From positions 9,063 through 73,062 of the forward strand of contig CAZYDG010000043.1 of NCBI GenBank assembly GCA_964645835.1: a stretch of 64,000 nucleotides of DNA, read 5' to 3'. The notes under the pieces are model-generated. The model ran no database searches and was not told the DNA's origin. It saw only the letters and a program-made list of their open reading frames with translations. Position 1 is the first letter of the stretch. Every line of letters begins with the position of its first letter. The position numbers were made by a program, and so were the translations under genes. Below, one piece after another: positions 10,162 through 47,717 of the stretch. This stretch comes from an uncultured Syntrophaceae bacterium (GTDB lineage Bacteria > Desulfobacterota > Syntrophia > Syntrophales > UBA8958).

Positions 10162-10162
10162 T

Positions 10163-29293: not shown

Positions 29294-30202
29294 ATGGATA
29301 TTTCCGTCATCATCGTCAATTGGAACACCCGTGATCTTTTGAAGGATTGCCTGTCATCGGTTTTCCGCACCCTGACGAATGCCGCCTTCGAGGTGATTGT
29401 CGTTGATAACGGTTCATCCGATGGTAGCGTGGAGATGGTGCGGGAGTCCTTCCCTTCGGTCCGGCTGATTGCAAATGCCGATAATCGCGGTTTCGGGGCG
29501 GCGAACAATCAGGCCCTCCGCGTCATGAATGGCCGGTATGCCTTACTTCTCAATTCAGATACGGTTATAACGGATCAGGCCGCATTGCGGCTTTTTTCAT
29601 TTATGGAGACCCATCCCGAGGTGGCCATGGCCTGCGGGCAGCTCCTCAACCGCGATGGATCCAAGCAACATTCCTTTGCGAGTTTTCCCAACCTGATAAC
29701 TATCACGACCAACACCCCCCTTCTGGAATGGCTTTTCCCTCGTCGCTATCCCAGCAAGCGCTATGATTATGCCGAACCGCGTGAAGTCGATTCGCCTATC
29801 GGGGCTTGCCTTATGGTTCGCAAGGTTGCCATGGATCAGGTGGGCATCTTCGATGAACGGTATTTCTTCTTCTTTGAAGAGACGGATTGGGCCTTTGCCA
29901 TGCGGCGGGCGGGCTGGATGGTCTATTATGTGCCGGGTGTTTTCATCTATCACTTCCAGGGACAGAGCATCGGGGCGAATGTCCAGTCCCGGATCGAATT
30001 CTATCGTTCCCGTTATCAGTACTTCAAGAAGTGGAAAAGCCGACCCTACTGCGTCCTTGTCATGATGATTATCATTGTCCGTTTAACCTGCAATTGGTTT
30101 TTTACAGGCATAGCCGCTGCGGCGACTTTGGGCCTGAATAAGGCTTTGCGGGATAAATGGGTTGTCTATTCAAGATTGCTTCTGTGGCATTTAGTCCGTT
30201 GA
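29294..30202 (+). CDS. Glycosyltransferase family 2 (rhamnosyltransferase-like)
   Basis: 302 aa. Contains ISVIIVNWNTRDLL, VVDNGSSDGS, NRGFGAANN and FFEETDW. Confidence 0.85.
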   Translation: MDISVIIVNWNTRDLLKDCLSSVFRTLTNAAFEVIVVDNGSSDGSVEMVRESFPSVRLIANADNRGFGAANNQALRVMNGRYALLLNSDTVITDQAALRLFSFMETHPEVAMACGQLLNRDGSKQHSFASFPNLITITTNTPLLEWLFPRRYPSKRYDYAEPREVDSPIGACLMVRKVAMDQVGIFDERYFFFFEETDWAFAMRRAGWMVYYVPGVFIYHFQGQSIGANVQSRIEFYRSRYQYFKKWKSRPYCVLVMMIIIVRLTCNWFFTGIAAAATLGLNKALRDKWVVYSRLLLWHLVR

Positions 30203-30301
30203 AAAATACCCATCCCGCGCTTTCGCGGTAACCTCCCTCTGCACCCCCTCCAGAGGGGGACACGTCTGCTGCGTTGCGCTGCATGCTTCGCATATTTCAT
30301 T

Positions 30302-30368
30302 GTAGGGTGGAACAAGCGAAGCGGTTCCACCGACAGATGGTGGATGCGCTTCGCTTCATCCACCCTAC
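30302..30368. repeat. 67-bp imperfect palindrome (GTAGGGTGGA...TCCACCCTAC)
   Basis: The outer arms GTAGGGTGGA and TCCACCCTAC are inverted repeats. The inner AAGCGAAGCG and CGCTTCGCTT are too. Confidence 0.6.
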
Positions 30369-30387
30369 GGCTAAATTTATATTTTGT

Positions 30388-30515
30388 GCAGGCTGTTCAA
30401 AAATGCCCAGATGCAAGGCGCGCAAAAGCTGAGGAATGAGTCTCGTCCATAGAAGTACGTCGATTGACAAAGCTTGCAGTGCAACGCTGCAGATGGACGT
30501 TTTTCAACAGCCTGC
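30388..30515 (-). repeat. MITE-like element, copy A (inverted orientation)
   Basis: 128 bp. Its reverse complement aligns end to end with 62682..62807. Termini are GCAGGCTGTT(C/G)AAAAA(T/C)G and its inverted complement. Confidence 0.8.
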
Positions 30516-30595
30516 CAAGTTTTTCTTGACAATTCCCAGTGCCTATCTTAATAGTCGGTCTGTTCAACAAATGAACAGAAAGGAATGCCCGTATA

Positions 30596-30985
30596 TTGCC
30601 ACTTCCGCAACCATCTTCCAGGCTTGAAGGCGAAGAGGTCTTGAATATCCTCAAGGCGATCGAGGACAATGCCGAGGTAACGCAACGTGAATTATCGTCT
30701 TCTCTGGGCATTTCCTTAGGGAAGGTCAACTTTCTCCTTCAGGCCCTTATTGAACGGGGCTTGGTCAAGGCCGATAATTTCAAAAAATCGAATCATAAAA
30801 ATGCTTATTTATACTACTTGACACCCAAAGGGTTGGAAGCGAAGGTTCGGACGACTTTTCTTTTTCTTAAAAGAAAAATGGCGGAATACGAAAGACTCGA
30901 GCAGGAAATCGTGGCGCTGAAAAATGAGCTTGCCCATCATATAGATCAAGGGCAAGAGCTTGAAGATAATGATTTTATAAAGTAG
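30596..30985 (+). CDS. MarR-family EPS-associated transcriptional regulator
   Basis: Contains QRELSSSLGISLGKVNFLLQALIERGLVKADNFKKS.HKNAYLYYLTPKGL.AK, followed by a C-terminal coiled EYE.LE.EI. This matches the EPS-associated MarR subfamily as I remember it. The TTG start at 30596 is uncertain. Confidence 0.7.
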   Translation: MPLPQPSSRLEGEEVLNILKAIEDNAEVTQRELSSSLGISLGKVNFLLQALIERGLVKADNFKKSNHKNAYLYYLTPKGLEAKVRTTFLFLKRKMAEYERLEQEIVALKNELAHHIDQGQELEDNDFIK

Positions 30986-31020
30986 TTGCGGATGTTTCTG
31001 CGGCCTTGCCGATGATTTTA

Positions 31021-31091
31021 TGTAATCCAAAGGGCGGAGCTGTATCTGGATGGGACGACAAATAATCGTGTAAGCCCTTTTTCAGGGCTCT
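31021..31091 (+). promoter_or_regulatory. Conserved leader motif (ops/JUMPstart-like), EPS sub-operon copy
   Basis: TGTAATCCAAAGGGCGGAGCTGTATCTGGA (31021-31050) plus TTTTTCAGGGCTCT (31078-31091). The 17-mer 31031-31047 is identical to 39453-39469. Lies 20-90 nt upstream of the ATG at 31111. Confidence 0.45.
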
Positions 31092-31110
31092 TAAAACGTA
31101 AAGGAGATAA

Positions 31111-32283
31111 ATGATGGACTTTATTGATCTGGCGGCGCAGCAAAAGCTGATCCTCGGGCAACTCGAAGGCAATATCAAAAATGTTTTAAATCACGGTCAG
31201 TATGTCATGGGACCGGAGATAAAGGTGCTTGAGAAAAAACTGGCCTCTTATGTGGGAGTCAAGCATGCTATTGGTTGCGCATCCGGGACAGATGCCCTGC
31301 TCATGGCCTTGATGGCCTATGGAATTGGCCCAGGCGATGCGGTCTTCACAACACCCTTTACATTTATCGCCACTGCAGAGGTTATCGCCCTCTTGGGCGC
31401 CACGCCTGTTTTTGTAGACATCGATCCGGATACATTCAATATATCGCCCGTGAAACTTGAGCAGGCTATTACGGCCCTGAAAACTCAAAACTCTTCCCTG
31501 TATCCATTACCCGTAGATCAAAAAGAAGCACTTGTTCCGAAGGGAATCATCCCTGTCGATCTTTTCGGCCTGCCTGCCGATTATGATCGGATCGGTGCGA
31601 TCGCGAAAGAGCATAATCTCTTCATCATTGAAGATGCGGCCCAGTCCTTCGGCGGAGATTATTACGGCAAAAAGGCCTGTGCATTAGGAAATATCGCCTG
31701 CACGTCATTTTTTCCCGCCAAACCACTGGGCTGCTACGGTGACGGCGGCATGTGTTTCACCGGCGATGACGGCCTGGCAAATGTCATGGAGTCCATTCGT
31801 ATCCACGGGAAAGGCGATGACAAATACGATAACATCCGCATCGGTATCAATGGTCGTCTCGATACCCTCCAGGCAGCCATTCTGCTGGCGAAATTCGATA
31901 TTTTCCCCGATGAAATCGAAAAACGGAGGGAAGCCGCCTGCCAGTATAACGATCTGATCGAGGCGGTAAACGGCTCTCTCGTCACGCCGAAAACCCCTGA
32001 AGGCTTCGGGAGCGCCTGGGCCCAGTATTCCCTCCTTGCCCAGGATGAAAAGACGAGGAACACCCTCATGAGTAACCTGAAGAAGCAAGGCATTCCCACG
32101 GCCATCTATTATCCGAAACCTCTGCACATGCAGACAGCCTTCGCCGGTTTCGGGTATTGCAAGGGGGCTTTTCCCGTATGTGAAGATTGTGCCGACCGCA
32201 TCTTCAGTTTGCCGATGCATCCCTACTTGAGCCTGGAGGTCCAGCAAACGATAGCACGGGGATTGGTAATGCCGGTAGAATGA
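31111..32283 (+). CDS. DegT/DnrJ/EryC1/StrS-family sugar aminotransferase
   Basis: 390 aa. Contains GPEI..LE..LA.Y.G.KHAIGCASGTDAL and FFPAKPLGCYGDGG. AAGGAG RBS. Confidence 0.88.
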   Translation: MMDFIDLAAQQKLILGQLEGNIKNVLNHGQYVMGPEIKVLEKKLASYVGVKHAIGCASGTDALLMALMAYGIGPGDAVFTTPFTFIATAEVIALLGATPVFVDIDPDTFNISPVKLEQAITALKTQNSSLYPLPVDQKEALVPKGIIPVDLFGLPADYDRIGAIAKEHNLFIIEDAAQSFGGDYYGKKACALGNIACTSFFPAKPLGCYGDGGMCFTGDDGLANVMESIRIHGKGDDKYDNIRIGINGRLDTLQAAILLAKFDIFPDEIEKRREAACQYNDLIEAVNGSLVTPKTPEGFGSAWAQYSLLAQDEKTRNTLMSNLKKQGIPTAIYYPKPLHMQTAFAGFGYCKGAFPVCEDCADRIFSLPMHPYLSLEVQQTIARGLVMPVE

Positions 32284-32326
32284 GCGATAATAGCGAGTTG
32301 AAAAAAGAATTCAAAAGGATCGGATT

Positions 32327-33556
32327 ATGAACTGTCGATTTTGCGGGCACCATCTCAAACACGAATTTATCGATTTAGTCAATTCTCCGCCTTCGAATGC
32401 CTTTTTGACAAAGGATCAACTCAATGAGCCGGAGATCTTCTACCCCCTTAAGCTTTACGTCTGCGACGCCTGCTTTCTCGTCCAGATCGATGAGTATAAG
32501 AAGTCCAGTGATATCTTTAATTCCGGGTATATCTATTTTTCCTCCTTTTCAACGACATGGCTGGCTCATGCCAGGAAATATGTTGAAATGATAATTGAGA
32601 GATTTGGATACAACCCAAAAAGCAGGGTCATCGAGATCGCTTCGAATGATGGCTATTTGCTGCAATATTTTAAAGAACGGGGGATTCCATGCCTCGGTAT
32701 CGAACCTGCGGAAGGTACTGCTTTTGAAGCCAGAAAGAAGGGCATTGAAACGGTTGTGAATTTTTTCGGCAAACGATTTGCGGAGGATCTGGCGGAGCAG
32801 GGGAAAAAGGCGGATTTGTTGATCGGCAACAATGTCCTTGCCCATGTCCCGGACCTGCATGATTTTGTGGCCGGTCTAAAGATTGCCCTAAAGTCCGATG
32901 GCGTAATTACCATGGAGTTTCCGCATTTGATGCAGCTTGTGGATGATTGCCTTTTCGATATTATCTATCATGAGCACTTTTCCTACCTGTCGCTCACAAC
33001 CGTCCAGTCCATCTTTAGACTGCATGGCCTCGACATCTTTGATGTCGATGAACTTCCTACCCAGGGAGGATCCCTCCGGATTTATGCGAAACATACAGAG
33101 GATCTTACTAAAGAAATCTCGAATCGTGTCGGCGCTTTTTTAGAAAATGAACGGGCAAAAGGTGTCAGCACGATGGACTATTATGAGGATTTTTCTCAGC
33201 GGGCGGACCGGATCAAATATGACCTGCTAAAATTCCTCATCGATCAGAAGCTAAAAGGGCGCAAGATTGCAGCCTATGGGGCAGCGGCCAAAGGCAACAC
33301 TCTTCTTAATTATTGCGGTATCCGAAAAGACCTCATTCCCTTCGTCGTCGATATATCGATACACAAGCAGGGGAAATATCTGCCCTGCAGCCATATTTTG
33401 GTGGTTGGCGAGGAGGAAATCAAGAAATACAAACCCGACTATGTCCTGATCCTGCCGTGGAATATCAAAGAAGAGATTATGGCGCAGCTTGATTACATCC
33501 ATGCCTGGGGCGGGCGATTTGTCGTGCCGATGCCGCGGGTCGAAGTTATTGATTAA
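32327..33556 (+). CDS. SAM-dependent sugar C-methyltransferase (TylCIII-like; N-terminal Zn-ribbon)
   Basis: 409 aa. Zn ribbon CRFCGH...CDAC, the class I MTase motif VIEIASNDGYLL, and a C-terminal C-methyltransferase-type domain. Confidence 0.7.
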   Translation: MNCRFCGHHLKHEFIDLVNSPPSNAFLTKDQLNEPEIFYPLKLYVCDACFLVQIDEYKKSSDIFNSGYIYFSSFSTTWLAHARKYVEMIIERFGYNPKSRVIEIASNDGYLLQYFKERGIPCLGIEPAEGTAFEARKKGIETVVNFFGKRFAEDLAEQGKKADLLIGNNVLAHVPDLHDFVAGLKIALKSDGVITMEFPHLMQLVDDCLFDIIYHEHFSYLSLTTVQSIFRLHGLDIFDVDELPTQGGSLRIYAKHTEDLTKEISNRVGAFLENERAKGVSTMDYYEDFSQRADRIKYDLLKFLIDQKLKGRKIAAYGAAAKGNTLLNYCGIRKDLIPFVVDISIHKQGKYLPCSHILVVGEEEIKKYKPDYVLILPWNIKEEIMAQLDYIHAWGGRFVVPMPRVEVID

Positions 33557-33562
33557 TAAGTA

Positions 33563-34513
33563 GTGGAGCTACTAACAGTTGCCATAACGGGAGCGGGCAG
33601 TTTTGTAGGGACGCATCTGTTGGAGCGCCTTATGCCCTGCAAGGATTTGTACTTCAGATTGCTTGTTCATAAAAATGTGAATGCATCTTTGCGGGGGGGG
33701 GGAAATGTCTCAATCATTGAGGGCAGTCTTCTTGACGGCAAGGCGTTGAACGATTTTGTCGTGCCGGGATGCATCGTGGTCAATCTGGCCTATCTTCACG
33801 ATGGCTCACTTGAGGACAATCTCGTTTCAATAGATAACCTCACAGAGACCTGTCGCCGGGCAAAGATAAAACGTCTTATCCATTGCAGCACGGCCGTCGT
33901 TTCCGGAAGAACTTCGAATAATATCGTTACAGAAAACACTTCCGGCAAGCTCTTGCATGAATACGAAATCATAAAAAATAATATTGAAAAAAATATACTG
34001 AAAAAATCGGATGGCTCTTTTGAAGTAGTTATTCTGCGACCGACAGCCATTTTTGGGAAAGATGGAAGAAATCTGCTTAAACTTGCCGATTCCCTTAGGT
34101 GTGGAAACAGGTTTCTGAATTACATAAAGTCATGCACTCACCAGTTCCGCCGGATGAACCTGGTCTATATCGAGAATGTAACGGCGGCCATTGAATATCT
34201 TATAAGGGCGGATCGTTTTATAAACAGTGAAATCTTCATTATTTCAGATGATGAGGATCCTGCCAATAATTATCGCGATATTGAAAAGTATTTAATGGCG
34301 CGAATGGGCTGCAAGCCCTATCGGGGCGCTCCGATTTCCCTGCCTTTTCCAATCTTAAAAACCATGCTTCGGCTTACGGGAAGAAGCAATGATAATCCAA
34401 ATCTTCTTTACGATTGCGGGAAGCTCAAATCCTATGGTTTCGAAAAGCCTGTTTCTTTTAAAGAGGGGTTATCGCGGTTTTCCGACTGGTATATAAAGAC
34501 GCATCTTTCTTGA
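33563..34513 (+). CDS. NAD-dependent epimerase/dehydratase family protein
   Basis: 316 aa, GTG start. Contains ITGAGSFVGTHL and YEIIK (YxxxK). The gene is visibly A/T-richer than its neighbours. Confidence 0.7.
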   Translation: MELLTVAITGAGSFVGTHLLERLMPCKDLYFRLLVHKNVNASLRGGGNVSIIEGSLLDGKALNDFVVPGCIVVNLAYLHDGSLEDNLVSIDNLTETCRRAKIKRLIHCSTAVVSGRTSNNIVTENTSGKLLHEYEIIKNNIEKNILKKSDGSFEVVILRPTAIFGKDGRNLLKLADSLRCGNRFLNYIKSCTHQFRRMNLVYIENVTAAIEYLIRADRFINSEIFIISDDEDPANNYRDIEKYLMARMGCKPYRGAPISLPFPILKTMLRLTGRSNDNPNLLYDCGKLKSYGFEKPVSFKEGLSRFSDWYIKTHLS

Positions 34514-34565
34514 ATAAAGGATTTTTCTGTGATCGTGCTGAGAAAACAATTTAAGGGCTTCCATA

Positions 34566-36044
34566 TTGTCCGTAAGAAATAATGTTATTGCAAATTTTTC
34601 GGGCAACGTATGGTCGGCCCTTATGGGGCTCATCTTTGTGCCGGTTTATATCCGATTGATGGGTGTTGAAGCTTACGGAATCGTTGGGATTTATATCTCC
34701 CTGCAGGCGGTCTTTGCGGTACTCGATCTTGGCTTGTCACAGACTTTGGCCAGAGAGATGGCGAGGCTCTCGGTGGATTCCAAGAATTTGAAGCTGATGG
34801 CGGATACGGCTCATACGCTGGAAATCATCTATTGGGTTGCCGCTGCAGGTGTCGCCCTTGTCATTGTCTTATCCTCTCATTTCATCGCCTATTATTGGTT
34901 AAACCCTCAGCAGCTGTCCAGAGAGTCCCTGCGGAATGCCTTATGGGTTATGGCTTTCGTGATTGGTATTCGCTGGCCCATGACCCTTTACATGGGGGGA
35001 TTGAACGGCTTGCAACGGCAAGTATTATGCAATACGCTGCTGGCATTTTTTGCCACCCTGCAGGGCATAGGCGCGATTGCTGTCCTTTGGTTTGTCGCAC
35101 CGACTATCGAAGTGTTTTTTTGCTGGCAAGCGTTGATCTCACTATTTCAGGTACTGGCTGTGCAAGTCGCTCTGTGGAGGAATCTTCCTTTCCGGGGATC
35201 GCGTTTTCGCTTGGATGTGCTGAAGGGGATATGGCGCTTTGCAGCGGGTATGACCGGTATTGCCCTGTTGGCAACGATATTGACGCAGTTGGATAAGCTT
35301 CTTCTCAGTAAGTTGCTCAGCTTGTCCGAATTTGGGTATTATGTGTTTGCTTCGACAGTTGCGGCGGCGCTTTTCAAATTGACGAGCCCGATCTTTACGG
35401 CCTATTTGCCACGATTTACCGAGTTGGCTTCAGTCGGCGATCAAGGATTGCTAATCCGAATTTACCATCAGGGCTGCCAGTTGATGGCTTTGGTCACCGT
35501 TCCCGCGGCAATGGTCTTGGCTTTTTTTTCGATGGATATTTTGATGTTATGGACTCGGGATGCAGGCTTGGCGATCCATTCCTTTTTATTAGTCAGCCTT
35601 TTAGTTGTCGGGAATGCTATCAATGGTTTCATGAATCTGCCCTATGCGCTGCAGCTCGCCCACGGATGGACCAAATTGGCTTTTTATCAGAATTTGATTG
35701 CTGTGATAATGGCCGTTCCCGGCTTCTTTGTTGCCACTTATTACTGGGGGGCAGTAGGCGCCGCAGCTGTCTGGATAGCAGTGAACAGCTCCTACGTTCT
35801 GATTGGCATCCAGGTGATGCACCGGCGTTTGCTGAAGACGGAAAAGGGGCGTTGGTATAAGGAATCAGTCATTTTCCCGTCTATTGCCGGAGGAGGAGTC
35901 GCCGCCTTTTTATCATATGTGGTCCCCATACCGGCCAATCCCTTCATGGTGGTCCTGTCTCTTACGGCGGTCAGTATTTTGATTTTTTTTAGCGTGGCAT
36001 TAGCTTTACCTGATATACGCCAAAGATTGGTTCAATACATCTAG
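34566..36044 (+). CDS. Wzx-type (MOP superfamily) polysaccharide flippase
   Basis: 492 aa with about 12-14 TM segments. The N-terminus NFSGNVWSALMGLIFVPVYIRLMG.EAYG is typical of Wzx. TTG start. Confidence 0.8.
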   Translation: MSVRNNVIANFSGNVWSALMGLIFVPVYIRLMGVEAYGIVGIYISLQAVFAVLDLGLSQTLAREMARLSVDSKNLKLMADTAHTLEIIYWVAAAGVALVIVLSSHFIAYYWLNPQQLSRESLRNALWVMAFVIGIRWPMTLYMGGLNGLQRQVLCNTLLAFFATLQGIGAIAVLWFVAPTIEVFFCWQALISLFQVLAVQVALWRNLPFRGSRFRLDVLKGIWRFAAGMTGIALLATILTQLDKLLLSKLLSLSEFGYYVFASTVAAALFKLTSPIFTAYLPRFTELASVGDQGLLIRIYHQGCQLMALVTVPAAMVLAFFSMDILMLWTRDAGLAIHSFLLVSLLVVGNAINGFMNLPYALQLAHGWTKLAFYQNLIAVIMAVPGFFVATYYWGAVGAAAVWIAVNSSYVLIGIQVMHRRLLKTEKGRWYKESVIFPSIAGGGVAAFLSYVVPIPANPFMVVLSLTAVSILIFFSVALALPDIRQRLVQYI

Positions 36045-36189
36045 CAGCTGTTGAAAAACGCCCATCTGCTGTGTTGCGCCGCAAGCTTCCCCGGCCTTCG
36101 CCGGGGCAGGCTACATCGACGTACTACTATGTATGCCTCATTCCTCAGCTTTTGCGTGCCTTGCATCTGGACATTTTTGAACAGCCTGC
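36044..36189 (+). repeat. MITE-like element, copy B (with nested hairpin insertion)
   Basis: 146 bp. Starts on the last base of the flippase stop codon. Aligns with copy D except for a replaced segment containing the hairpin CCCCGGCCTTCGCCGGGG. Confidence 0.8.
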
Positions 36190-36234
36190 ACAAAATCGAA
36201 TTTTTAACAACCTGCTAGACTTAGGGTTTATTTT

Positions 36235-37311
36235 ATGATCACCACTGTAATTCCAACTTTTCAGCGTCCTTTGTTGCTGAAACGGGCGATTGAGAGTGCC
36301 TTAGCCCAATCGTTCGGCGATATACAAATTTGTGTACATGATAATGCGTCCCAGGATGAAACGGAGTCGGTTGTTCGTGATTATGCACGTTTGGACAAGC
36401 GGGTTTTTTACTTCAGGAACCCCGTCAATATCGGACCGGTAAGGAACATGATCCAAGGCGTCAATGCTGTAGAGACGCCATACTACTCCCTCCTTAATGA
36501 TGACGATTTTTTGCTGCCCGGTTTTTACGAGCATGCCATTGGCGGTTTTAACCGCCATCCGGATGCCTGGATATCCTGTGCGAAGACCATGACGCTGAAC
36601 GTCATCGATGGGCAATTCGAACTTCGGAACCGGGACTGGGCGGCCGGTTTCTATCGACCAAGCATTGAAATACTTAATAAAATGTATAGTTCCCACTTTG
36701 TGCCGACCTCCGTTTTGTTCAGGCGGGATGTCAGGGACCACCTCGGGGCATTCGAGGCATCGGGAAGCGATTCTCTCTATTTAACGATAGCCTCCGCCAT
36801 ACTGCCTTTTGTTGTTGTCGATTACTATGGTGGTGCCGTCACCTTACACCGGCAGGCCTACTCCATGATCGGTGAGGGGATTAACAAAGAGGGCATCGGG
36901 GTGCTGAACGAGCATCTATTGGAGAGTCTGGGCGTCGTAATGAGAGCGGCTATCGATCCCGATCTGAAAGTCAATCTGCTCATGCTGGTCATTAATGCCT
37001 ATCATCAGATCTACGATTCGAAGCGCTTGGGGTATTTACTGGGCAACCACGATGAGGCGAATATCGGTAATCTGTTCATGCTTCCCTCGTTGATTACGAA
37101 TAGAGGGTTGGTGGCAAAATTTTATCGTGCCGTTCCTGACGGCTTCAAACCGATGGTCAAAATACTGTATGAAAAAACCTCTCTTGCAAGACAGAGGAGG
37201 CAAACGATATCAAATGCCAGTTGGATGCCCTTGCCTGACGATATTAAGGCCGGGTTGGAGCGATCTGATATCGATGTGTCCAAAATCGCGTCGCTAGCCG
37301 GTATCAAATAA
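36235..37311 (+). CDS. Glycosyltransferase family 2
   Basis: 358 aa. Contains ITTVIPTFQRP.LL.RAI.SAL.Q and LNDDD. Confidence 0.8.
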   Translation: MITTVIPTFQRPLLLKRAIESALAQSFGDIQICVHDNASQDETESVVRDYARLDKRVFYFRNPVNIGPVRNMIQGVNAVETPYYSLLNDDDFLLPGFYEHAIGGFNRHPDAWISCAKTMTLNVIDGQFELRNRDWAAGFYRPSIEILNKMYSSHFVPTSVLFRRDVRDHLGAFEASGSDSLYLTIASAILPFVVVDYYGGAVTLHRQAYSMIGEGINKEGIGVLNEHLLESLGVVMRAAIDPDLKVNLLMLVINAYHQIYDSKRLGYLLGNHDEANIGNLFMLPSLITNRGLVAKFYRAVPDGFKPMVKILYEKTSLARQRRQTISNASWMPLPDDIKAGLERSDIDVSKIASLAGIK

Positions 37312-37347
37312 AGTAAATCATTCAAAAGAAGATGAATTCGTAAAAAG

Positions 37348-37430
37348 TCGTCACACCGGTGAAAACCGGTGTCCAGTGTTTGTGTAACGCATTGAAATAT
37401 CTGGATTCCGGTCTTCACCGGAATGACGAT
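37348..37430. repeat. Double-hairpin palindromic element, copy 2
   Basis: GTCGTCACACCGGTGAAAACCGGTGTCCAG, a 25-nt spacer, then CTGGATTCCGGTCTTCACCGGAATGACGAT. The arms are mutual inverted repeats. Confidence 0.65.
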
Positions 37431-37452
37431 TCTTGAACATTTTTAGCTTTTT

Positions 37453-38148
37453 ATGAGAACATTAAAGAAAGTATCAAGAATAATGAGGCTTAGCAAAGAA
37501 ATCGAATTACGTATCGGTAGCTCGGAAGATTTAGCACGGTATGTTTTATATCAGTTACGTATTTTTATGCCAGCTGATCAAGATGAAGGTTTTGAAACAA
37601 TAAATCGCTATTTACCCGGAACCTTAAAACGAATGGCACCTATTTTGGCATGCGCCAAACATTTTCAGCCCGGAATTTTCGATCATCTTAATTCACAGCA
37701 GTATGCCATGTTTTTATATTTACTGGCCAATGAAATCTGGACAAATGATGAAAGCAGTTGGGTAGTATGTGAGAAACTCTTTTTTTTGAATAGAATATTT
37801 TCCGGAATGGATCTGTACTACAAAATAAATATGCCGGAGATTTTCCTGATCGAGCATGGTGGCGGATCTGTTCTTGTAAATACGCATTATGGAAATAAAT
37901 TTGTATTTTTTCAGTCCGTAACGGTTGGCCGGCTGGGGGATGCATGCCCTGTTATTGGAGAGGGTGTTATACTTTTTCCTAATACCGTCGTTACCGGAGA
38001 GTCCATCATTGGTGATTATTCCGTAATATCCGCCGGCACAATAGTTAATAATAAAATTATTCCGCCAGACTCAGTCGTGTTTTCCAATGGATCCGATATC
38101 GTTATCAAGGACAGGAAAAAAGATTATTTATCTTATTATTTTAGATAG
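37453..38148 (+). CDS. Hexapeptide-repeat (left-handed beta-helix) acyltransferase-like protein
   Basis: 231 aa. The C-terminal half has [LIV]-G-x4 hexapeptide periodicity (VIGEGVILFPNTVVTGESIIGDYSVISAGTIV). The N-terminal half resembles the serine-acetyltransferase-like helical domain. A/T-rich gene. Confidence 0.55.
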   Translation: MRTLKKVSRIMRLSKEIELRIGSSEDLARYVLYQLRIFMPADQDEGFETINRYLPGTLKRMAPILACAKHFQPGIFDHLNSQQYAMFLYLLANEIWTNDESSWVVCEKLFFLNRIFSGMDLYYKINMPEIFLIEHGGGSVLVNTHYGNKFVFFQSVTVGRLGDACPVIGEGVILFPNTVVTGESIIGDYSVISAGTIVNNKIIPPDSVVFSNGSDIVIKDRKKDYLSYYFR

Positions 38149-38202
38149 CATGATGTCGACGGGAACAATGACGCTATTGGACAGCTGATTGTGGGCGATT
38201 AC

Positions 38203-39123
38203 ATGGGATCGGAGCTTGTAAGCATCATCATTCCGGCCTTTAATCATGGACGATATCTCAGGCAGGCCATTGACAGTGTGCTGATGCAGGACTATCCGAA
38301 CATTGAATTGATCGTTCTGGATGACGGTTCAACTGATAATACCAGAGCGGTCCTTGAAAGTTACGGAGATGCCTTTTATTGGGAGACGCATCCGAACATG
38401 GGTCAGGCAAACACCCTTAACAAGGGGTGGCAACAGGCAAAGGGGTCGATTTTATCTTACCTCAGCGCCGATGACATTCTGATGCCCGATGCGGTCAGTT
38501 CATCTCTGGCGTATTTAAAGGGTGATATTGTCTTGACGTATGGCGATTTCAATCTTATCGATCCCTCATCGAAGATCATCCGGCAAGTAGCGGCGCCGGA
38601 GTTTAGCTATCTTGAAATGTTCTGCAAGTTCATTTGCCAGCCCGGCCCCGGGGTCTTTATGACCCGCCGGGCTTACGAAGCGGCGGGCGGCTGGGATAGC
38701 ACATTGAAGCAAATGCCCGACCATGAGTATTGGTTGCGGCTTGGGCTTGTCGGCCCATTTGTCAGGGTTCCGAAAGTACTTGCCGCATTTCGCGTGCACG
38801 ACGATTCGCTAACCTATTCGATTTCCGACACGCATAGAGCGGAAGAGCCGTTGCGGGTGATCCATAAGTTTATTGAAAGCCATGAACTACCACTGGAATT
38901 AATTGCCGTGAAACATGTTGCGATCAGCAGTGCCTGGCTTTTCACGGCGCAATTGCATATTCGCTCGGGTCGCTTTAAAGAGGGGTTTGCCGCATTGTGG
39001 CACTCATCCACGATATCACCTGGTAATTTCTTTTCTCTACGCACTTTTCGGATTCTTTTAAATAGTTTTTTAAATCGATGTTTTCACCGGATCATGCGAT
39101 TAAAAAACCGACTTGGAAATTGA
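38203..39123 (+). CDS. Glycosyltransferase family 2
   Basis: Contains VSIIIPAFNHGRYL.QAIDSVL.Q, LDDGSTD and SADD. The ATG 38203 start is preferred over GTG 38191. Confidence 0.85.
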   Translation: MGSELVSIIIPAFNHGRYLRQAIDSVLMQDYPNIELIVLDDGSTDNTRAVLESYGDAFYWETHPNMGQANTLNKGWQQAKGSILSYLSADDILMPDAVSSSLAYLKGDIVLTYGDFNLIDPSSKIIRQVAAPEFSYLEMFCKFICQPGPGVFMTRRAYEAAGGWDSTLKQMPDHEYWLRLGLVGPFVRVPKVLAAFRVHDDSLTYSISDTHRAEEPLRVIHKFIESHELPLELIAVKHVAISSAWLFTAQLHIRSGRFKEGFAALWHSSTISPGNFFSLRTFRILLNSFLNRCFHRIMRLKNRLGN

Positions 39124-39442
39124 TGATCTATACAATTTATGTAGAATTCCCCCATCCCCCTTTTGCTAAAAGGGGGCAATTTGATGTATTCCCTGCCTGG
39201 GGGGCAAGAGCATAACTGAGAGAGTTTATAAGGACGGTCTTTTAAACACGGAATGGGGATTAAATCAGCATAAGATTCCGAAACAATGGATTTATTAACG
39301 AATAGGCCGACGGTCCTTTCCTCCAGAATTGTCTTGACATTCCTTTGTCATTTAAGTAGGTTGCCGTCAGCGTTCAATTTGTGAACATATGGTTTTCCCC
39401 TCATTCTCGTTGTCTGAAGGGAAAAATCGGTCGCCCCTGGGT

Positions 39443-39498
39443 TGTAACTCAGAGGGCGGAGCTGTATCTTGAAAGGGATCATGATTTTTCAGTGCTCT
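39443..39498 (+). promoter_or_regulatory. Conserved leader motif (ops/JUMPstart-like), T2SS-like operon copy
   Basis: TGTAACTCAGAGGGCGGAGCTGTATCTTGA (39443-39472) plus TTTTTCAGTGCTCT (39485-39498). Lies 25-80 nt upstream of the gspG ATG. Confidence 0.45.
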
Positions 39499-39522
39499 CG
39501 ATAAACCAAAGAGGTTGTTGAC

Positions 39523-39924
39523 ATGAAAGAGACAAAACAAAGACATAGGCAGGGGGGCTTCACACTTATTGAAATCCTGATCGTGGTCATTATCATCGGG
39601 CTCATTGCCTCTCTTGTGGCGCCGAACCTGATCGGCCGGTATGAACGGTCGAAGGAAGAAATTGCCAAGGCCCAGGTAGAAATGCTCTCGTCGGGCGTCA
39701 TGTCCTTTAAGCTGGATATGAACCGTTATCCGACCAGCTTTGATGAACTGGTTAAATCGACGGATGCGAAGTGGCGCGGCCCTTACCTTTCCAAGCAAAC
39801 CATCCCGCAAGACCCATGGGGGAGGGACTACGTATATAAAGTCCCCGGCGATCACGGGCCGTTTGATATCTATTCTCTGGGTGACAGCGGAAAACTGGAC
39901 GATAAATCGCCCAGGAACTGGTAA
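39523..39924 (+). CDS. gspG: Type II secretion major pseudopilin GspG
   Basis: 133 aa. Prepilin leader and cleavage site QGG/FTLIEILIVV. The C-terminus DPWGR.Y.Y..PG.HG.FD..SLG.DG is GspG-specific. Confidence 0.9.
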   Translation: MKETKQRHRQGGFTLIEILIVVIIIGLIASLVAPNLIGRYERSKEEIAKAQVEMLSSGVMSFKLDMNRYPTSFDELVKSTDAKWRGPYLSKQTIPQDPWGRDYVYKVPGDHGPFDIYSLGDSGKLDDKSPRNW

Positions 39925-39926
39925 GC

Positions 39927-41603
39927 ATGTCTTTCGAACAGATTTTAAAAGACAGCTACGGCGTCACGGAAGATGACTTCAACAAGGCGCTGAAGCTTCA
40001 AACCGAAATGGGCGGTCAGATTGGCCGCATCCTGGTCCAGGTCGGGTCTATTACGTATACCCAGTTGATGGAGGCGCTAGCTAAGAGCATGAATGTGCCA
40101 CTCTTTAGCGGCGACTGGGAACAGAACGGTGACTTGATCACCTTCCTCGATGGTCATCTAAACTATGGATATCTCCTGCGCAACAACGTTTTGCCTATCG
40201 GTATAGACCATGAACACAAGGTGTTATCTGTTGTAACCGACGATCCCTTCAATACATCCATTTCAGATTATATAGTAAACAATCTCGGCTACCGCGTGGC
40301 CATATCACTGGCGACGGAAGATACGATCAAGGACCTGTCCAAAGACTATACGGATGGACAAACGGGGGAATTCGTATCCCTCGAGTTTGAGGAAGATGCC
40401 GCGAAGCTCAAGGAGATGGCCTTTGAAGCCCCGGTGATCAAATTTCTCAATAATCTGATCAGTAAGGCAGTTGAAATCAGGGCTTCCGATATCCATCTGG
40501 AATCGTCGGAACGCAGATACCGTGTTCGCTTCAGGATCGACGGTATTCTCCAGGATATCGAATTTCTTGATGAGCAATTTTTCCTGGCAACCGTTTCGCG
40601 TATCAAACTCCTTGCCAGTCTCGATATCGCGGAAAAAAGATTGCCCCAGGATGGCAAATTTACGACCAAGATCGCTTCCCTGCTGTTGGATATCCGTGTT
40701 TCCACCATGCCCACCATCAGTGGCGGCGGCGTCGTGATGAGACTCCTGTATCGGGAGAAGATTTCTTTCGATCTTGAATACCTGGGGCTTGATGTGGATC
40801 ACAAGGAGTTGGTGGTCAACCTCATTTCACGTTCGTATGGCATGCTTCTCGTCACGGGTCCGACCGGTTCGGGCAAGACGACCACCCTCTATTCGATGCT
40901 TACGCGTTTGAACGATCCGGAACGAAAGATCATTACCATCGAGGACCCCGTCGAATATCAATTGGAAGGGATCAATCAGATCCAGACAAAAAGCGAGATC
41001 GGGCTCACATTTGCCAGCGCTCTGCGTTCCATCCTGAGACACGATCCCGATATTATCATGGTCGGCGAGATCCGGGACAGGGAAACGGCAGAAATATCCA
41101 TTCAGTCTGCTTTGACGGGACATTTCGTTTTTTCCACACTCCATACGAACGATGCACCGAGTAGTCTGTTTCGGCTCGTAGAAATGGGTGTGGCTGATTA
41201 TCTCCTCAATGCGGCGGTAGTCGGCGTGATGGCCCAACGAATCGTAAGAAAAAATTGCCCCTTTTGCCTGGAGCCGGAAGCCTTGCCCGACATCCTCTTG
41301 GAAGAATACGCCTTTAATGAGATTGTCGCTAAATATTCGAACCTTGCGCCGGAAGGATTGAAGGCAATGAAGGGAAAAGGGTGCTCAAAATGTGCGGGTA
41401 CGGGTTATAAAGGCCGAATCGCTATCTTTGAAATATTTGAATATAAGGAAGAACTCAAGCAGGTCTTTCTGAAGAGATTGTCCCTTGAGGATATGAGGGT
41501 CGCGTTGCATGCAGACGGTAATTATCGAACCCTCCGGGAAGACGGAATCCTTAAAGTGGCAAAGGGTCTGACGACACTGGAAGAGGTATTGCGCGTATGC
41601 TGA
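39927..41603 (+). CDS. gspE: GspE/PilB-family secretion ATPase
   Basis: 558 aa. Walker A VTGPTGSGKTTT, Asp/His boxes, and a tetracysteine CPFC...CSKCAGTG. Confidence 0.92.
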   Translation: MSFEQILKDSYGVTEDDFNKALKLQTEMGGQIGRILVQVGSITYTQLMEALAKSMNVPLFSGDWEQNGDLITFLDGHLNYGYLLRNNVLPIGIDHEHKVLSVVTDDPFNTSISDYIVNNLGYRVAISLATEDTIKDLSKDYTDGQTGEFVSLEFEEDAAKLKEMAFEAPVIKFLNNLISKAVEIRASDIHLESSERRYRVRFRIDGILQDIEFLDEQFFLATVSRIKLLASLDIAEKRLPQDGKFTTKIASLLLDIRVSTMPTISGGGVVMRLLYREKISFDLEYLGLDVDHKELVVNLISRSYGMLLVTGPTGSGKTTTLYSMLTRLNDPERKIITIEDPVEYQLEGINQIQTKSEIGLTFASALRSILRHDPDIIMVGEIRDRETAEISIQSALTGHFVFSTLHTNDAPSSLFRLVEMGVADYLLNAAVVGVMAQRIVRKNCPFCLEPEALPDILLEEYAFNEIVAKYSNLAPEGLKAMKGKGCSKCAGTGYKGRIAIFEIFEYKEELKQVFLKRLSLEDMRVALHADGNYRTLREDGILKVAKGLTTLEEVLRVC

Positions 41604-42802
41604 GCCTCTTTGCCTATAAGGCCCTGGATGCTTCCGGCCAGGAAAATAAAGGGACGATCAGTGCGGCAAATTCGTCCGAAGCGGTGCTGGCACTCAGGTC
41701 ACGGGGACTTGTTGTCATTGATCTCAACGAACGAAGAGAGATGACCAAGAAAGGGATTCGTTTTGCCAGGCGCTTCGGCCAACAGGACCTTTACAGTGTC
41801 GCCAGGGAATTGAGCACCCTGCTTCGATCCGGCATGCGGATCGACAAATCTCTTGAAATCTTGATCTCAGCAACATCGAAACAAGACCTGAAACAGGTTC
41901 TTGAAGGGATTTTGACGGATATAAAGGCCGGCCGGGATGTGGCTGAAGCCTTCGGACGAACGGGACGGTTCAGTTCTTTCCTGGTCAGCATGATCCACGT
42001 CGGCGAGGCCGTTGGGGCGCTTCAGCCCGCATTTGAAAATATCGCCCAATATCTTCGTTTCCAGATTCAGTTCAAATCGGAGATTCGGGGGGCGCTGACC
42101 TATCCAGTTTTTCTGATCTTTGCCAGTATCCTGACATTTGTAGTCATCTTCAATTTTATCGTTCCAAGATTTTTCAGCATCTTCGGTACGAACCTGACCA
42201 GCCTGCCCCTGCCGGCCAAAATTCTCTATACCTTAAGCGGGTGGTTGAGTTTCAGAAATATCGCCATTTGCCTGGCCGTGGCGGCACTCGTCGTATTTGC
42301 CAATAAAATGAATCCGACAAAATTCAAATTGCCCAACTGGTCCTCTTATCTGATCCGTATTCCCATGATGGGGAATCTCATTTTAAACCTGGAACTGTCG
42401 CGATTTTCCTATTCCATGTATTCTATCCTCTCGAGCGGTGTGACCTTTATTCAGGCACTAAGCTTGTCCGCTTCCCTGATACAGAATGAACATCTTCGGC
42501 ATCCGATAACATCCCTTGTCGGCCAGATCAAGGAAGGCAAGAAGATTTCCGATGTTTTCATGCAGGTCAATATACTTCCGGATATATACCCCAATATGAT
42601 AATGGTCGGCGAAGAGAGCGGCAACCTCAAAGATATCTTCTTTGAACTTTATCAGATTTTCGATGAGCGCTTCAAGAACAGCATCAAGATGGTTTTGACG
42701 CTTGTAGAGCCTATAATTATTCTGTTGATGGGACTACTCGTCGGCTTTATCGTCATTACGCTGATTCTGACCGTTATGAGCGTCAGCAGCATTAAATTGT
42801 AA
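41597..42802 (+). CDS. gspF: GspF/PilC-family inner-membrane platform protein
   Basis: 401 aa. Two repeated T2SSF-type domains and 3 TM segments. Overlaps the gspE stop. Confidence 0.9.
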   Translation: MLSLFAYKALDASGQENKGTISAANSSEAVLALRSRGLVVIDLNERREMTKKGIRFARRFGQQDLYSVARELSTLLRSGMRIDKSLEILISATSKQDLKQVLEGILTDIKAGRDVAEAFGRTGRFSSFLVSMIHVGEAVGALQPAFENIAQYLRFQIQFKSEIRGALTYPVFLIFASILTFVVIFNFIVPRFFSIFGTNLTSLPLPAKILYTLSGWLSFRNIAICLAVAALVVFANKMNPTKFKLPNWSSYLIRIPMMGNLILNLELSRFSYSMYSILSSGVTFIQALSLSASLIQNEHLRHPITSLVGQIKEGKKISDVFMQVNILPDIYPNMIMVGEESGNLKDIFFELYQIFDERFKNSIKMVLTLVEPIIILLMGLLVGFIVITLILTVMSVSSIKL

Positions 42803-42827
42803 AATAATCCCTATGATCGGGAGCAAG

Positions 42828-43229
42828 ATGACAGAGAAAGGGTTCAGTCTGATCGAACTGCTTTTGGTTGTCTCTATCATCGGGTTGATGTTTTCGGTTG
42901 CCCTTCCTGTTTCGTTCAATATGTACAGCAACTATAAGGCCTCAATTAAGGCCCAGGAAATAATGGTTTATACATCCGGTATACGGCGGGAAGCCTTTCT
43001 TTACAGCGAAAGAAAAGTGTTGTCTTCAAAAGACAATGTCATGACCGTGAACAGCGAGAAAAAGAATTTTGATAATGTAAAGGTGCAGATCAGCTCTCCC
43101 ATAGAATTCTTCCGAAATGGGACGACCAATGGGGGGATGATTAAGATCGTGGTCGATGACCAGATTTATCAATTGAATGTCCTACCTCCAGTGGGAGATC
43201 TTGCCCTTTCGAGAGGCGATGGCTCTTAA
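42828..43229 (+). CDS. Minor pseudopilin (GspH-like)
   Basis: Prepilin N-terminus MTEKG/FSLIELLLVVSIIGL. The ATG 42828 start follows GGGAG. The track start at 42813 lacks an RBS. Confidence 0.7.
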   Translation: MTEKGFSLIELLLVVSIIGLMFSVALPVSFNMYSNYKASIKAQEIMVYTSGIRREAFLYSERKVLSSKDNVMTVNSEKKNFDNVKVQISSPIEFFRNGTTNGGMIKIVVDDQIYQLNVLPPVGDLALSRGDGS

Positions 43230-43647
43230 CTCAAACGGCAGGAAGGGTTTTCTCGTCCTGGAGATTCTGATTGCCGGTCTTATCCTTACCTCGAGTATCG
43301 CGGCGACCATGTACATGTTTCATATGGGGAGCCTGTATCTTGATAAGGTGAATCAATCGAATATGCTGTCGTCAAAGCTTATTCAGGTAAGCAACATTTT
43401 CAAGGTTGTGCCCCTCGAAAACAGTTCGGGTACGGAAGACATGGGTGATGGGGTCCTCATGACATGGAAGTCGCAACTGATCTCATCGGCCAAACCACAG
43501 ATTGGCGAGGGTGAAGATGCCTTGCCTTCCCTGCATGAACTCATGCTGTACCTGGTGAGTTTTGATCTTGCCTATCAAGGCAATACAAGAAGCTATCAGA
43601 TCAATGTCTTTCGCTATAAACCATTGTCATCGGGGGAAACCGACTAG
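43219..43647 (+). CDS. Minor pseudopilin-like protein (GspI position)
   Basis: Start reset to ATG 43219, giving MALNSNGRKG/FLVLEILIAGLIL, with Glu at +5 after Gly-Phe. Confidence 0.55.
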   Translation: MALNSNGRKGFLVLEILIAGLILTSSIAATMYMFHMGSLYLDKVNQSNMLSSKLIQVSNIFKVVPLENSSGTEDMGDGVLMTWKSQLISSAKPQIGEGEDALPSLHELMLYLVSFDLAYQGNTRSYQINVFRYKPLSSGETD

Positions 43648-44299
43648 GGGCTATACCCTGGTTGAGGTCATGGTGGCTATGGTCATTCTGACGTCCATGC
43701 TGTTCCTGGGCGGCATGGCCATTAATCAAGGGCTCCGTCAGTACCATGGCCTCGTGGAGCAAGGCCTCAATTTCTGGGAATATGCAAAAACGCTATGGAT
43801 CGACAAGAGTTGCAACTCGGCAACGGACTATTACGTGTATACGAGAAGCGATGGATGGTTCCCCTACTTCAAAGGCGATCAGGAAGGGCTTTCGTTTGTC
43901 TCCTTGGCGCCTTTTGCAAACGATACGCCAGTTGCTATTTGGATAAGAAACGTTTCTGAAAAAGATGGATCTCGTTCGCTTGTATATTACGAATTGCCCG
44001 TTTATACGAAAACTTATGAAGATTTAGACCGGGACTATGTCTTCGGCGATTATAAAAAAGGAAGATCTTACAAGATTCTGGAAAATTTCAGCGCCATCGA
44101 ATTCAGCTTCTATGGTTATGATGTGCAGACAGGAAAAACCGTCTGGTCCAATCAATATGAGGGCAAGGCTATGAAACGGCTGCCTTCTTTAGTCAAAATT
44201 TCCTATCGGCATCACAAAACCGGCAAGGGGGTCTTGCTGTTAAGCATGAATGTTAATGCGCTCTTGAAAGCCGGTTATAATGAAGCCTATGTCAGATAG
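43604..44299 (+). CDS. Minor pseudopilin-like protein (GspJ position)
   Basis: Start reset to ATG 43604, giving ...KPTRG/YTLVEVMVAMVIL. About 230 aa, as for GspJ. Confidence 0.55.
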   Translation: MSFAINHCHRGKPTRGYTLVEVMVAMVILTSMLFLGGMAINQGLRQYHGLVEQGLNFWEYAKTLWIDKSCNSATDYYVYTRSDGWFPYFKGDQEGLSFVSLAPFANDTPVAIWIRNVSEKDGSRSLVYYELPVYTKTYEDLDRDYVFGDYKKGRSYKILENFSAIEFSFYGYDVQTGKTVWSNQYEGKAMKRLPSLVKISYRHHKTGKGVLLLSMNVNALLKAGYNEAYVR

Positions 44300-45218
44300 G
44301 CAAGGCTCCGTTACGATTTTGATTATGCTGATCGCCGCTGTTCTGATCACGGTGGGATTGGGATTCAACTGGTTGGTAAAAGAGCACGTCAGTTCTTCCG
44401 AGGGGTTAAAGAGCAAGGCTGAGGCAATTATCAAGGCCCGGTCGACTTTTGATACTGTTATCTTTTTGATCCTAACAGGCCGGGTACTGGCGAAAGAAGT
44501 GGCTACACCGGGGGGTGAATCTATCGCAGGGATAGTCACTCTGCCCCTTAACGGACAATTGGTAAAACTGGGGGAAGGAGTCAGTGTTCGAATTCAGGAG
44601 AGTAATGGTGCTATCTCCCTGTGGCATACAACCAGCCTAGAGAATAAAGCTGCTTTAGAGCGGTTGATTCAGCTATATGCCAAAGATCGCGACCATGATC
44701 AAAATCCTGCAGACAATTTATGGGACTGGATCGATGAGGATGATCTAGCCCGGACCAACGGTGCAGAAGCGGCTTATTATAAAGGAAAGGGATTGCATTA
44801 CGTGCCCAGGAATTATGCCCTCCAATCATTGGACGAACTTAAATTAATAAAAGGCTTTGACGAAAGCTTGCTTGACAAACTGGATAAAAGTTTGACTCTT
44901 CTACCCAAGACGGGTTTCAATCCGAATACGGCTTCGGACGATGTATTAATGGCCTATCTGAAATTTGACGAGCAAGCGATGAAGACTATGAAAGAGTATT
45001 TGGCCGATAAGCCAGTTTCATCGGATCGTGAGATGCTCTCTTTGACGGGGCAGAGCATTACAAAGGATGTGGATGCGATCTACTTTAGGCCATCACCCTA
45101 TATGGATGTGACAATTGATGTGGGAACACCTCGAAAAGTTTACAGTATCAAGGCCGGCTTGTTTATCGCCCAGAAAAAATACGCACCCTACAGTGTGTTA
45201 TCGTGGAAAGAGGAATAG
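44280..45218 (+). CDS. gspK: GspK-like pseudopilus tip protein
   Basis: 312 aa. N-terminal hydrophobic segment GSVTILIMLIAAVLI without Glu5. Contains DWIDEDD...NGAE..YY and L.S..EL.LIKG, hallmarks of T2SSK. Confidence 0.75.
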   Translation: MKPMSDRQGSVTILIMLIAAVLITVGLGFNWLVKEHVSSSEGLKSKAEAIIKARSTFDTVIFLILTGRVLAKEVATPGGESIAGIVTLPLNGQLVKLGEGVSVRIQESNGAISLWHTTSLENKAALERLIQLYAKDRDHDQNPADNLWDWIDEDDLARTNGAEAAYYKGKGLHYVPRNYALQSLDELKLIKGFDESLLDKLDKSLTLLPKTGFNPNTASDDVLMAYLKFDEQAMKTMKEYLADKPVSSDREMLSLTGQSITKDVDAIYFRPSPYMDVTIDVGTPRKVYSIKAGLFIAQKKYAPYSVLSWKEE

Positions 45219-45225
45219 GCGGGAT

Positions 45226-47713: not shown

Positions 47714-47717
47714 AAGT

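Follow-up and report, generated by a model that had tools for sequence, protein, structure and literature searches.

Leader element and its two copies

What does a short sequence block do that stands twice, in the same orientation, ahead of two long operons of an uncultured Syntrophaceae bacterium? The stretch analysed here (64,000 nucleotides; hereafter the window) holds, over about 50 kb around the block, a polysaccharide island in which one copy begins at position 31021, past a gene for a MarR family regulator associated with exopolysaccharide (EPS) loci (MarR_EPS), and the other at position 39443. The original prediction described both as an ops/JUMPstart-like motif, and both strings are indeed present at these coordinates. 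Based on comparison with related genomes, we propose that the element at 31021-31047, like its second copy at 39443-39469, is probably a composite ops/JUMPstart-like leader site which recruits a specialised NusG paralogue. The underlying leader signal of 25-30 bases is real and is found in the same place in about sixty related genomes. It comprises the following parts.

31021 to 31025, plus strand: TGTAA block, with G-N-A-A invariant and a fixed spacing to the core whatever the stem register (from the alignment and its information content)
31031 to 31047, plus strand: conserved core AGGGCGGAGCTGTATCT, including the ops-like GGCGG and a predicted pause between T31041 and G31042, alternatively at T31043; GC-GGA-GC could form a mini-hairpin in the non-template strand
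31006 to 31031, plus strand: position of the upstream RNA (pause) hairpin at the 31k copy, degenerate, with only GAUU/AAUC or CCUUG/CAAAGG pairings possible
31078 to 31091, plus strand: block 2, TTTTTCAGGGCTCT, with a counterpart only in the 39k leader of the window genome and lying outside the conserved element
39437 to 39472, plus strand: second motif copy, with the hairpin CUGGGU-UGUA-ACUCAG at 39437-39452, then AGGGCGGAGCTGTATCT at 39453-39469 and a predicted pause between T39463 and G39464

Read directly in the window, block 1 is TGTAATCCAAAGGGCGGAGCTGTATCTGGA at 31021-31050, with its second copy at 39443-39472; block 2 of the second copy lies at 39485-39498. The pair of 30-mers is the top-ranked direct repeat of the region 30200-39600 (87% identity), and the 17-mer core is exact in both copies. 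Allowing up to three mismatches, a 16-mer core occurs at these two sites only in the 64 kb on both strands, where 0.42 matches are expected by chance and at least two were found in 4 of 100 shuffles. A weight matrix trained on 63 instances, all from other genomes, gives about 45 bits at each of the two sites and no more than 8 bits in the rest of the window.

Block 2 had been counted as part of the motif, an assignment that is not borne out by other genomes: among 67 instances, none has TTTTTCAGNGCTCT within two mismatches. The block is identical at 13 of 14 positions between the two leaders of the window, and a weaker likeness, TATCTnGAnnGGGA, lies between core and block 2 in both; these shared portions make the 31k and 39k leaders look like paralogous copies, of which block 2 appears to be a lineage-specific part. 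The small hairpin described for block 2 (AGCCC-TTTTTCA-GGGCT) is present in the sequence, but with an unremarkable fold (z = -1.22), and nothing equivalent exists at the 39k copy.

Conservation in related genomes

To place the element in a wider context we sampled 80 genomic loci encoding MarR_EPS relatives. Outside the gamma- and betaproteobacteria, 64 loci had enough flanking sequence, nearly all of them from metagenome-assembled genomes (MAGs) of Syntrophales or 'Deltaproteobacteria', and 61 of these carry the motif on the coding strand, 81-285 nt (median 124) past the end of the MarR match. All 61 MarR-linked instances are co-oriented. Complete Syntrophales chromosomes also have the motif (OY764159.1, OY970063.1 and OY820932.1). 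Absence from orthologous leaders would have refuted the original prediction; the motif is kept there in the same place and orientation.

The genes that follow the motif are also partly shared. Orthologues of the aminotransferase that heads the first operon in the window (61-68% identical) begin at +46 to +77 from the motif in six loci (L018, L019, L025, L028, L053 and L076). Of these, L018 belongs to a Syntrophus aciditrophicus MAG and keeps the window's order of marR, motif and aminotransferase gene. In L034, MarR_EPS and the motif lead directly into an orthologous GspG cluster (GspG 79% identical). In L009, L013 and L035 the motif is followed, at distances of 0.3-4.5 kb, by orthologues of the type II secretion system (T2SS) ATPase and platform genes, and in L013 and L035 also by a GspG orthologue (46-47% identical). 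Extra motif copies away from marR occur in L008, L026, L039, L050 and L057. For the closest MarR relative (P0002, 94% identical) the contig stops before the motif position.

Three short contigs titled Dehalococcoidia, Bacteroidales and Saprospiraceae (L033, L055 and L056) carry a Syntrophales-type marR with its upstream palindrome (see below); L033 and L055 also have the motif, and the L056 contig ends too soon after marR. Their assignment to unrelated phyla probably reflects mis-binning rather than the true distribution.

Consensus, predicted pause and hairpin

Across genomes the element reads (variable 5' arm)-TGTAA-YCCAG-AGRGCGGAGCTGTAT(C). From TGTAA through GTAT the information content is high; it falls off on either side, down to 0.2-0.4 bits at the positions after GTAT. 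Aligned without gaps, the window core GGCGGAGCTGTA matches the ops sequence GGCGGTAGCGTG at 7 of 12 positions, namely 1-5 (GGCGG), 10 and 11 (GT), and the Nitrospirota-type core GGCGGAGCAGTG at 8 of 12. Within the core, GCGGAGC can pair G:C and C:G around GGA, like GC-GGTA-GC in ops, with no T to flip. The string GGGCGGAGCT followed by G fits the consensus elemental pause G-10 Y-1 G+1, with G31032 at -10, T31041 at -1 and G31042 at +1, and these pause-consensus bases are kept in more than 90% of instances. RNA polymerase is thus predicted to pause between T31041 and G31042, or at T31043 in the ops frame.

Upstream of the core, an RNA hairpin can form in most genomes. Since registers differ within the ungapped alignment, we assessed it by shuffles and permutations: a hairpin with its 3' end at -11 to -14 from the predicted pause is found in 46 of 67 non-redundant instances, compared with 19.1 +/- 3.8 (maximum 27) in 200 shuffles of the 5' flank. 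Each 5' arm agrees with its own class of 3' arm (CUGA with UCAG, CUGG with CCAG), a count which none of 2000 permutations reaches, and compensatory pairs occur at -15 (G:C 19, A:U 8, G:U 3) and at -16. A covarying hairpin immediately 5' of an ops-type sequence, the arrangement that characterises JUMPstart, is therefore a property of the family. The 39k copy has a clean six-pair stem ending at -12, the fold energy of which does not improve on shuffled sequence (z = -0.08), and Nitrospirota-type instances have the hairpin farther upstream, ending at about -19.

Stems occur in different registers, with hairpins of 12, 14, 15 or 16 nt, yet the spacing between TGTAA and the core is constant. TGTAA is therefore not always the loop, and the constant spacing suggests that its sequence is what is read, whereas the hairpin only has to form. 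We consider TGTAA a candidate contact in the upstream duplex or in the loop.

These same features bear on whether the element could act as RNA, with the covarying hairpin and a conserved, single-stranded AGRGCGGAGCUGUAU tail being bound in the nascent transcript. A NusG paralogue similar to LoaP could then be the reader, or a different RNA-binding protein, or the RNA could modify the polymerase directly, as EAR and put RNAs do. Compensatory changes and a variable register are the signature of an RNA or single-strand structure, and in many instances G-N-A-A could form a GNRA-type loop. For LoaP, another NusG paralogue, binding to an RNA hairpin of the leader is reported (cited in PMC11685472). 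However, the most conserved part of the element is the ops-like GGCGG...GT with pause-consensus spacing, which suits recognition of non-template DNA, and the fixed distance of TGTAA from the core, the more distant hairpin of the Nitrospirota type and the near absence of a hairpin at the 31k copy likewise speak against recognition as RNA, which we regard as improbable.

Association with NusG paralogues

A role in recruiting a NusG paralogue is suggested by what adjoins the motif in other genomes. In six of 14 gamma- and betaproteobacterial MarR_EPS loci (L058, L063, L069, L072, L073 and L079), the canonical hairpin with CAGGGCGGTAGCGTG stands beside MarR_EPS, and these same six gammaproteobacterial loci have an adjoining RfaH homologue. 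The variant motif was sought in all 14 loci and found in none. Two of the homologues were scanned (L079 and L073) and score 150.8 and 147.3 bits against a TIGR01955 cut-off of 144.5. The order in L073 (palindrome, marR, hairpin, ops) is that of the window.

In these gammaproteobacterial EPS loci MarR_EPS forms a tight cassette with an RfaH homologue and between one and three canonical JUMPstart/ops elements, as in L079, where marR lies at 10001-10324, rfaH at 10375-10809 and ops at 10928.

The GGGCGGAGC variant instead adjoins UpxY-family paralogues in L061, L081/82, L083, L087 and L089 (NF033644, 123-135 bits, cut-off 100); neighbours of this kind are found in Nitrospirota and in some deltaproteobacterial loci. 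L061 is the sole Syntrophales locus with an adjoining paralogue, which belongs to the UpxY family (NF033644, 122.9 bits against the cut-off of 100). In Dissulfurispira thermophila (Nitrospirota; L081/82) the palindrome is followed in turn by a MarR-like gene, the motif, the paralogue and EPS genes, and the motif lies about 35 nt before the paralogue start in L081, L087, L090 and L093. When metagenome contigs were collected from the paralogue outward (80 loci; motif threshold 16 bits), 25 had a co-oriented motif above the threshold, in most cases either about 35 nt ahead of the gene or 40-170 nt past it, whereas the best score on the minus strand was 8.3 bits. RfaH goes with GGCGGTAGCGTG and the UpxY type with GGCGGAGC(T/A)(G/T)T; the family of the factor and the variant of the motif therefore change together.

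The Nitrospirota-type relatives of MarR_EPS (L081:5316-5897, L087:3321-3902 and L089:3414-4004) occupy the same place in the cassette and are longer (193-196 aa), with an extra C-terminal C2185-like_N region; they score 72-74 bits, under the TIGR04176 cut-off of 88.

Promoter, palindrome and MarR_EPS

Both copies of the element in the window are preceded by a TTGACA box and a palindrome of the form GTTCA-N5-TGAAC, which at the first copy lie upstream of the regulator gene.

30526 to 30555, plus strand: sigma-70-like promoter TTGACA, 18 nt, AATAGT (10 of 12 matches), the presumed start of the motif-bearing transcript
30562 to 30576, no strand: palindrome GTTCAACAAATGAAC, a probable operator, most likely of MarR_EPS
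30596 to 30985, plus strand: gene of the MarR family EPS-associated regulator (marR_EPS, TIGR04176; 136.7 bits against a cut-off of 88)
39334 to 39339, plus strand: TTGACA -35 box of the second cassette, with a weak -10 that the promoter scan missed
39372 to 39386, no strand: second palindrome, GTTCAATTTGTGAAC

The palindrome is found just 5' of the MarR_EPS start codon in almost every locus, at a distance of about 10-60 nt (e.g. L001:9966, L081:5307, L087:3312, L089:3405 and L058:9193/9215/9285), from Syntrophales to gamma- and betaproteobacteria and Nitrospirota. The promoter pattern tttttCTTGAC...ATTA precedes MarR_EPS in nearly all related loci, with the palindrome about 10 nt downstream of the promoter, and in the window the palindrome also precedes the gspG operon. 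Its half-sites are conserved in sequence and do not covary, which matches the expectation for a protein operator. The palindrome is most likely the site of MarR_EPS, which would provide autoregulation together with control of the gspG operon. Given the shared promoter and palindrome, we describe the cassette as promoter, operator, marR where present, ops-like site and long operon.

MarR_EPS might itself read the leader element. The protein in the window, which is 100% identical to one of Syntrophus sp. SKADARSKE-3, is a winged-helix regulator with weak matches to the TFE and TFIIE_alpha models, and its role at the site could be that of a roadblock, an attenuator or a loading factor, in which case Syntrophales would need no NusG paralogue. 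It is the only protein that always adjoins the motif, while NusG paralogues almost never do so in this order, and the TFE/TFIIE-alpha similarity would suit such a function. Nonetheless, a much better MarR-type site, the symmetric GTTCA-N5-TGAAC, exists at nearly every MarR_EPS promoter, whereas the leader motif lacks symmetry and is strand-specific. Both the 39k copy and the extra copies in the five loci listed above are located away from marR, and the same cassette includes a NusG paralogue in gammaproteobacteria and Nitrospirota. We therefore think it quite unlikely that MarR_EPS is the reader.

The upstream promoters are also relevant to a reading in which the element serves the aminotransferase and gspG operons as an internal promoter or a double-stranded operator, for example with TGTAAY as the -35 and TCTnGA or GTAT as the -10 of an alternative sigma factor. 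The sigma-E type promoter consensus is GAACTT-N16-TCTGA, which TGTAAY-N16-TCTnGA loosely resembles, and the start codons come 54-64 nt after the element. Against this, information content peaks in the would-be spacer GGGCGGAGCTG, TCTnGA is not kept in other genomes, a sigma-70 scan was negative at the element, and a strong promoter and operator are already present upstream of both copies. The likeness to ops and the linkage to NusG paralogues would also be left unexplained, and we consider such a function very unlikely.

A sigma-54 or extracytoplasmic function (ECF) promoter was rejected as well, the would-be spacer being the most conserved part and the would-be -10 not being conserved.

Operons downstream of the element

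As originally described, the first copy follows the EPS-type MarR gene at the head of a long polysaccharide operon. This operon had been credited with eight co-directional genes, but a count of its open reading frames (ORFs) gives seven.

31111 to 39123, plus strand: seven-gene operon encoding a DegT aminotransferase, a C-methyltransferase, an epimerase/reductase, a Wzx-type flippase, a glycosyltransferase (GT2), an acetyltransferase and a further GT2
39523 to 48944, plus strand: operon under the second copy, encoding a GspG pseudopilin, a T2SS E ATPase, T2SS F, minor pseudopilins, a GspK-like protein and others

The two motif copies are thus co-oriented with operons of 8 kb and 9.4 kb, each 54-64 nt ahead of the first start codon. 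By inspection, the intergenic repeats of the first operon (36044-36189 and 37348-37430, within the intergenic regions 36044-36235 and 37311-37453) hold strong G+C hairpins, namely CCCCGGC-CTTC-GCCGGGG, ACACCGG-TGAAA-CCGGTGT and TTCCGG-TCTTCA-CCGGAA (36075-36110, 37350-37375 and 37398-37425). None of the three has a T-tract, and they could be pause, termination or processing sites. These hairpins fit a need for antitermination and are no proof of one.

A direct repeat of 28 nt, TGCAnnTGGACnTTTTTnAACAGCCTGC, occurs at 30488-30515 and 36162-36189 (86% identical), where it forms the end of an intergenic repeat element; the first copy adjoins the marR promoter, and the second is found between the flippase and GT2 genes. 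The repeat probably belongs to a small dispersed family of the window genome. A 9-bp hairpin, CCCCCTTTT-GCT-AAAAGGGGG, lies at 39156-39176, between the stop of the last GT2 gene (39123) and the second promoter, and is a possible end of the first transcription unit, with no clear U-tract.

Proposed mechanism

Based on this arrangement, we hypothesise that transcription from the TTGACA promoter would be gated by the GTTCA-N5-TGAAC operator, and that at the 31k copy the polymerase would read through marR_EPS into the element. It would then pause after the CT of GGGCGGAGCT, before the G that follows, assisted in most genomes by a nascent hairpin about 12 nt upstream. The exposed non-template GCGGAGC, as a GC-GGA-GC mini-hairpin and perhaps together with TGTAA in the upstream duplex, could be read by a NusG paralogue of the UpxY family, which would be encoded elsewhere in the genome and act in trans like RfaH. 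Once loaded, the factor would render the polymerase resistant to pausing and termination, allowing full-length transcription of the 8-kb sugar operon, with its hairpin-rich intergenic insertions, and of the 9.4-kb pseudopilus operon. The original proposal of an ops-like antitermination leader thus gains comparative support from conservation and from the RfaH and UpxY neighbours, although the site is not canonical ops and antitermination itself is inferred.

Several observations weigh against recruitment of a NusG paralogue. Neither the window nor positions 660-81599 (81 kb) of the contig JARLUC010000001.1, from the Syntrophus sp. SKADARSKE-3 MAG (GCA_030920355.1), in which the window corresponds to about 8925-72924, encode a NusG paralogue, as judged by tblastn with E. 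coli RfaH and the L061 and P0171 paralogues and by Pfam scans of about 50 window ORFs. Among about 60 Syntrophales loci, just one (L061) encodes a paralogue no farther than 10 kb from the motif. Almost all bases of the 12-nt non-template ops consensus GGCGGTAGnnTG are required, and ops forms a non-template hairpin with a C3:G8 pair that presents G5/T6, with T6 flipped into a pocket of RfaH (PMC5995543). The window core is identical to this consensus at 7 of 12 positions, with T6, A7 and G8 out of register, and so falls outside canonical ops; given this match and the missing T6, recognition cannot be RfaH-like in detail. The hairpin of the 31k copy is weak, with four A/U-rich pairs (z = -0.77). 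Finally, the Rfam JUMPstart model (RF01707) matched neither the window at its gathering threshold of 35 bits nor either leader at E <= 10, a test of little power since a canonical gammaproteobacterial JUMPstart (L063:5860-5886), used as a control, obtains just 12.4 bits with this model.

An RfaH orthologue (TIGR01955) was likewise not found within the same contig positions. The window does not have the UpxY-type layout, with the site directly 5' of upxY as the first gene; its first genes encode an aminotransferase and GspG.

With these points set against the comparative evidence, we still favour recruitment of a NusG paralogue, and we regard the element as most likely an undescribed variant that lies outside canonical ops yet is of the ops/JUMPstart/opsX kind. 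With less assurance, we lean towards a broader proposal, in which the element represents a cross-phylum class of ops-like loading sites for UpxY-family paralogues. Such sites would consist of a hairpin, TGTAA and YCAG-AGRGCGGAGC(U/A)GU without a flipped thymine, and would be tied to MarR_EPS and GTTCA-N5-TGAAC as a two-step switch, with the factor acting in trans in Syntrophales. The switch would first gate initiation and then license elongation of EPS and pseudopilus operons in Thermodesulfobacteriota (Syntrophales) and Nitrospirota. Full-text literature searches returned no description of the motif sequence, of a TIGR04176 function, or of UpxY-type factors or sites outside Bacteroides.

Implications

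To our knowledge, RfaH (ops) and, since 2024, Bacteroides UpxY are the only specialised NusG paralogues whose recruitment sites have been defined by experiment, and we know of no cis signal for most of the thousands of NusG paralogues. The variant would provide a sharply defined (about 45 bits), cross-phylum cis signal for an uncharacterised clade of these paralogues. It also offers a natural comparison within one MarR_EPS cassette, GGCGGTAGCGTG with RfaH in gammaproteobacteria versus GGCGGAGCTGT with UpxY-type factors elsewhere, by which the co-evolution of NGN-domain specificity with non-template DNA becomes directly testable. In aggregate-forming uncultured syntrophs the motif marks a putative EPS and pseudopilus regulon, and its context suggests a function for the TIGR04176 regulators, an uncharacterised family, as well as an operator.

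Comparison with known systems

The element resembles the LoaP leader hairpins of Firmicutes and EAR of Bacillus in being a leader element, structured RNA included, that would serve processive antitermination of long biosynthetic or EPS operons. Unlike the element, LoaP hairpins and EAR lack an ops-like GGCGG core and are recognised as RNA, and no sequence or Rfam similarity to them was found here.

Similar to the ops/JUMPstart sites of RfaH, the element lies on the coding strand in what we infer to be the transcribed leader of long polysaccharide and secretion operons. Both have a hairpin followed by (A)GGGCGG, a TG-type pause dinucleotide and a possible GC...GC non-template mini-hairpin. However, the central bases are AGCT here (AGCA in the Nitrospirota type) and TAGC in ops, T6 is absent so that the loop would be GGA rather than GGTA, and the conserved sequence extends about 12 nt farther upstream (TGTAA-YCAGA) and about 3 nt farther downstream (GTAT). 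The linked paralogues are of the UpxY type (NF033644) rather than RfaH (TIGR01955).

In Bacteroides, UpxY has been shown experimentally to act at opsX through a pause hairpin and non-template DNA as well as the upstream duplex (Saba et al. 2024, PMC11685472). The element differs from opsX in phyla and in sequence. In Syntrophales the operon does not begin with the paralogue, which is usually absent from the vicinity and so would act in trans like RfaH, and in place of a UpxZ-type inhibitor or an invertible promoter, neither of which was seen, there is a MarR_EPS gene with a palindromic operator. Nevertheless, both are composites of about 30-40 bp that combine a nascent-RNA pause hairpin, a non-template element, a consensus-type pause and conserved upstream-duplex sequence. 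The hairpin ends at -12 to -9 at Bacteroides opsX (PMC11685472) and at -11 to -14 here, and the distance from site to paralogue start in Nitrospirota-type loci, about 35 nt, is comparable with +41/+42 in Bacteroides class 1 (PMC11685472). The factor linked to the element belongs to the same NCBIfam subfamily as that of opsX.

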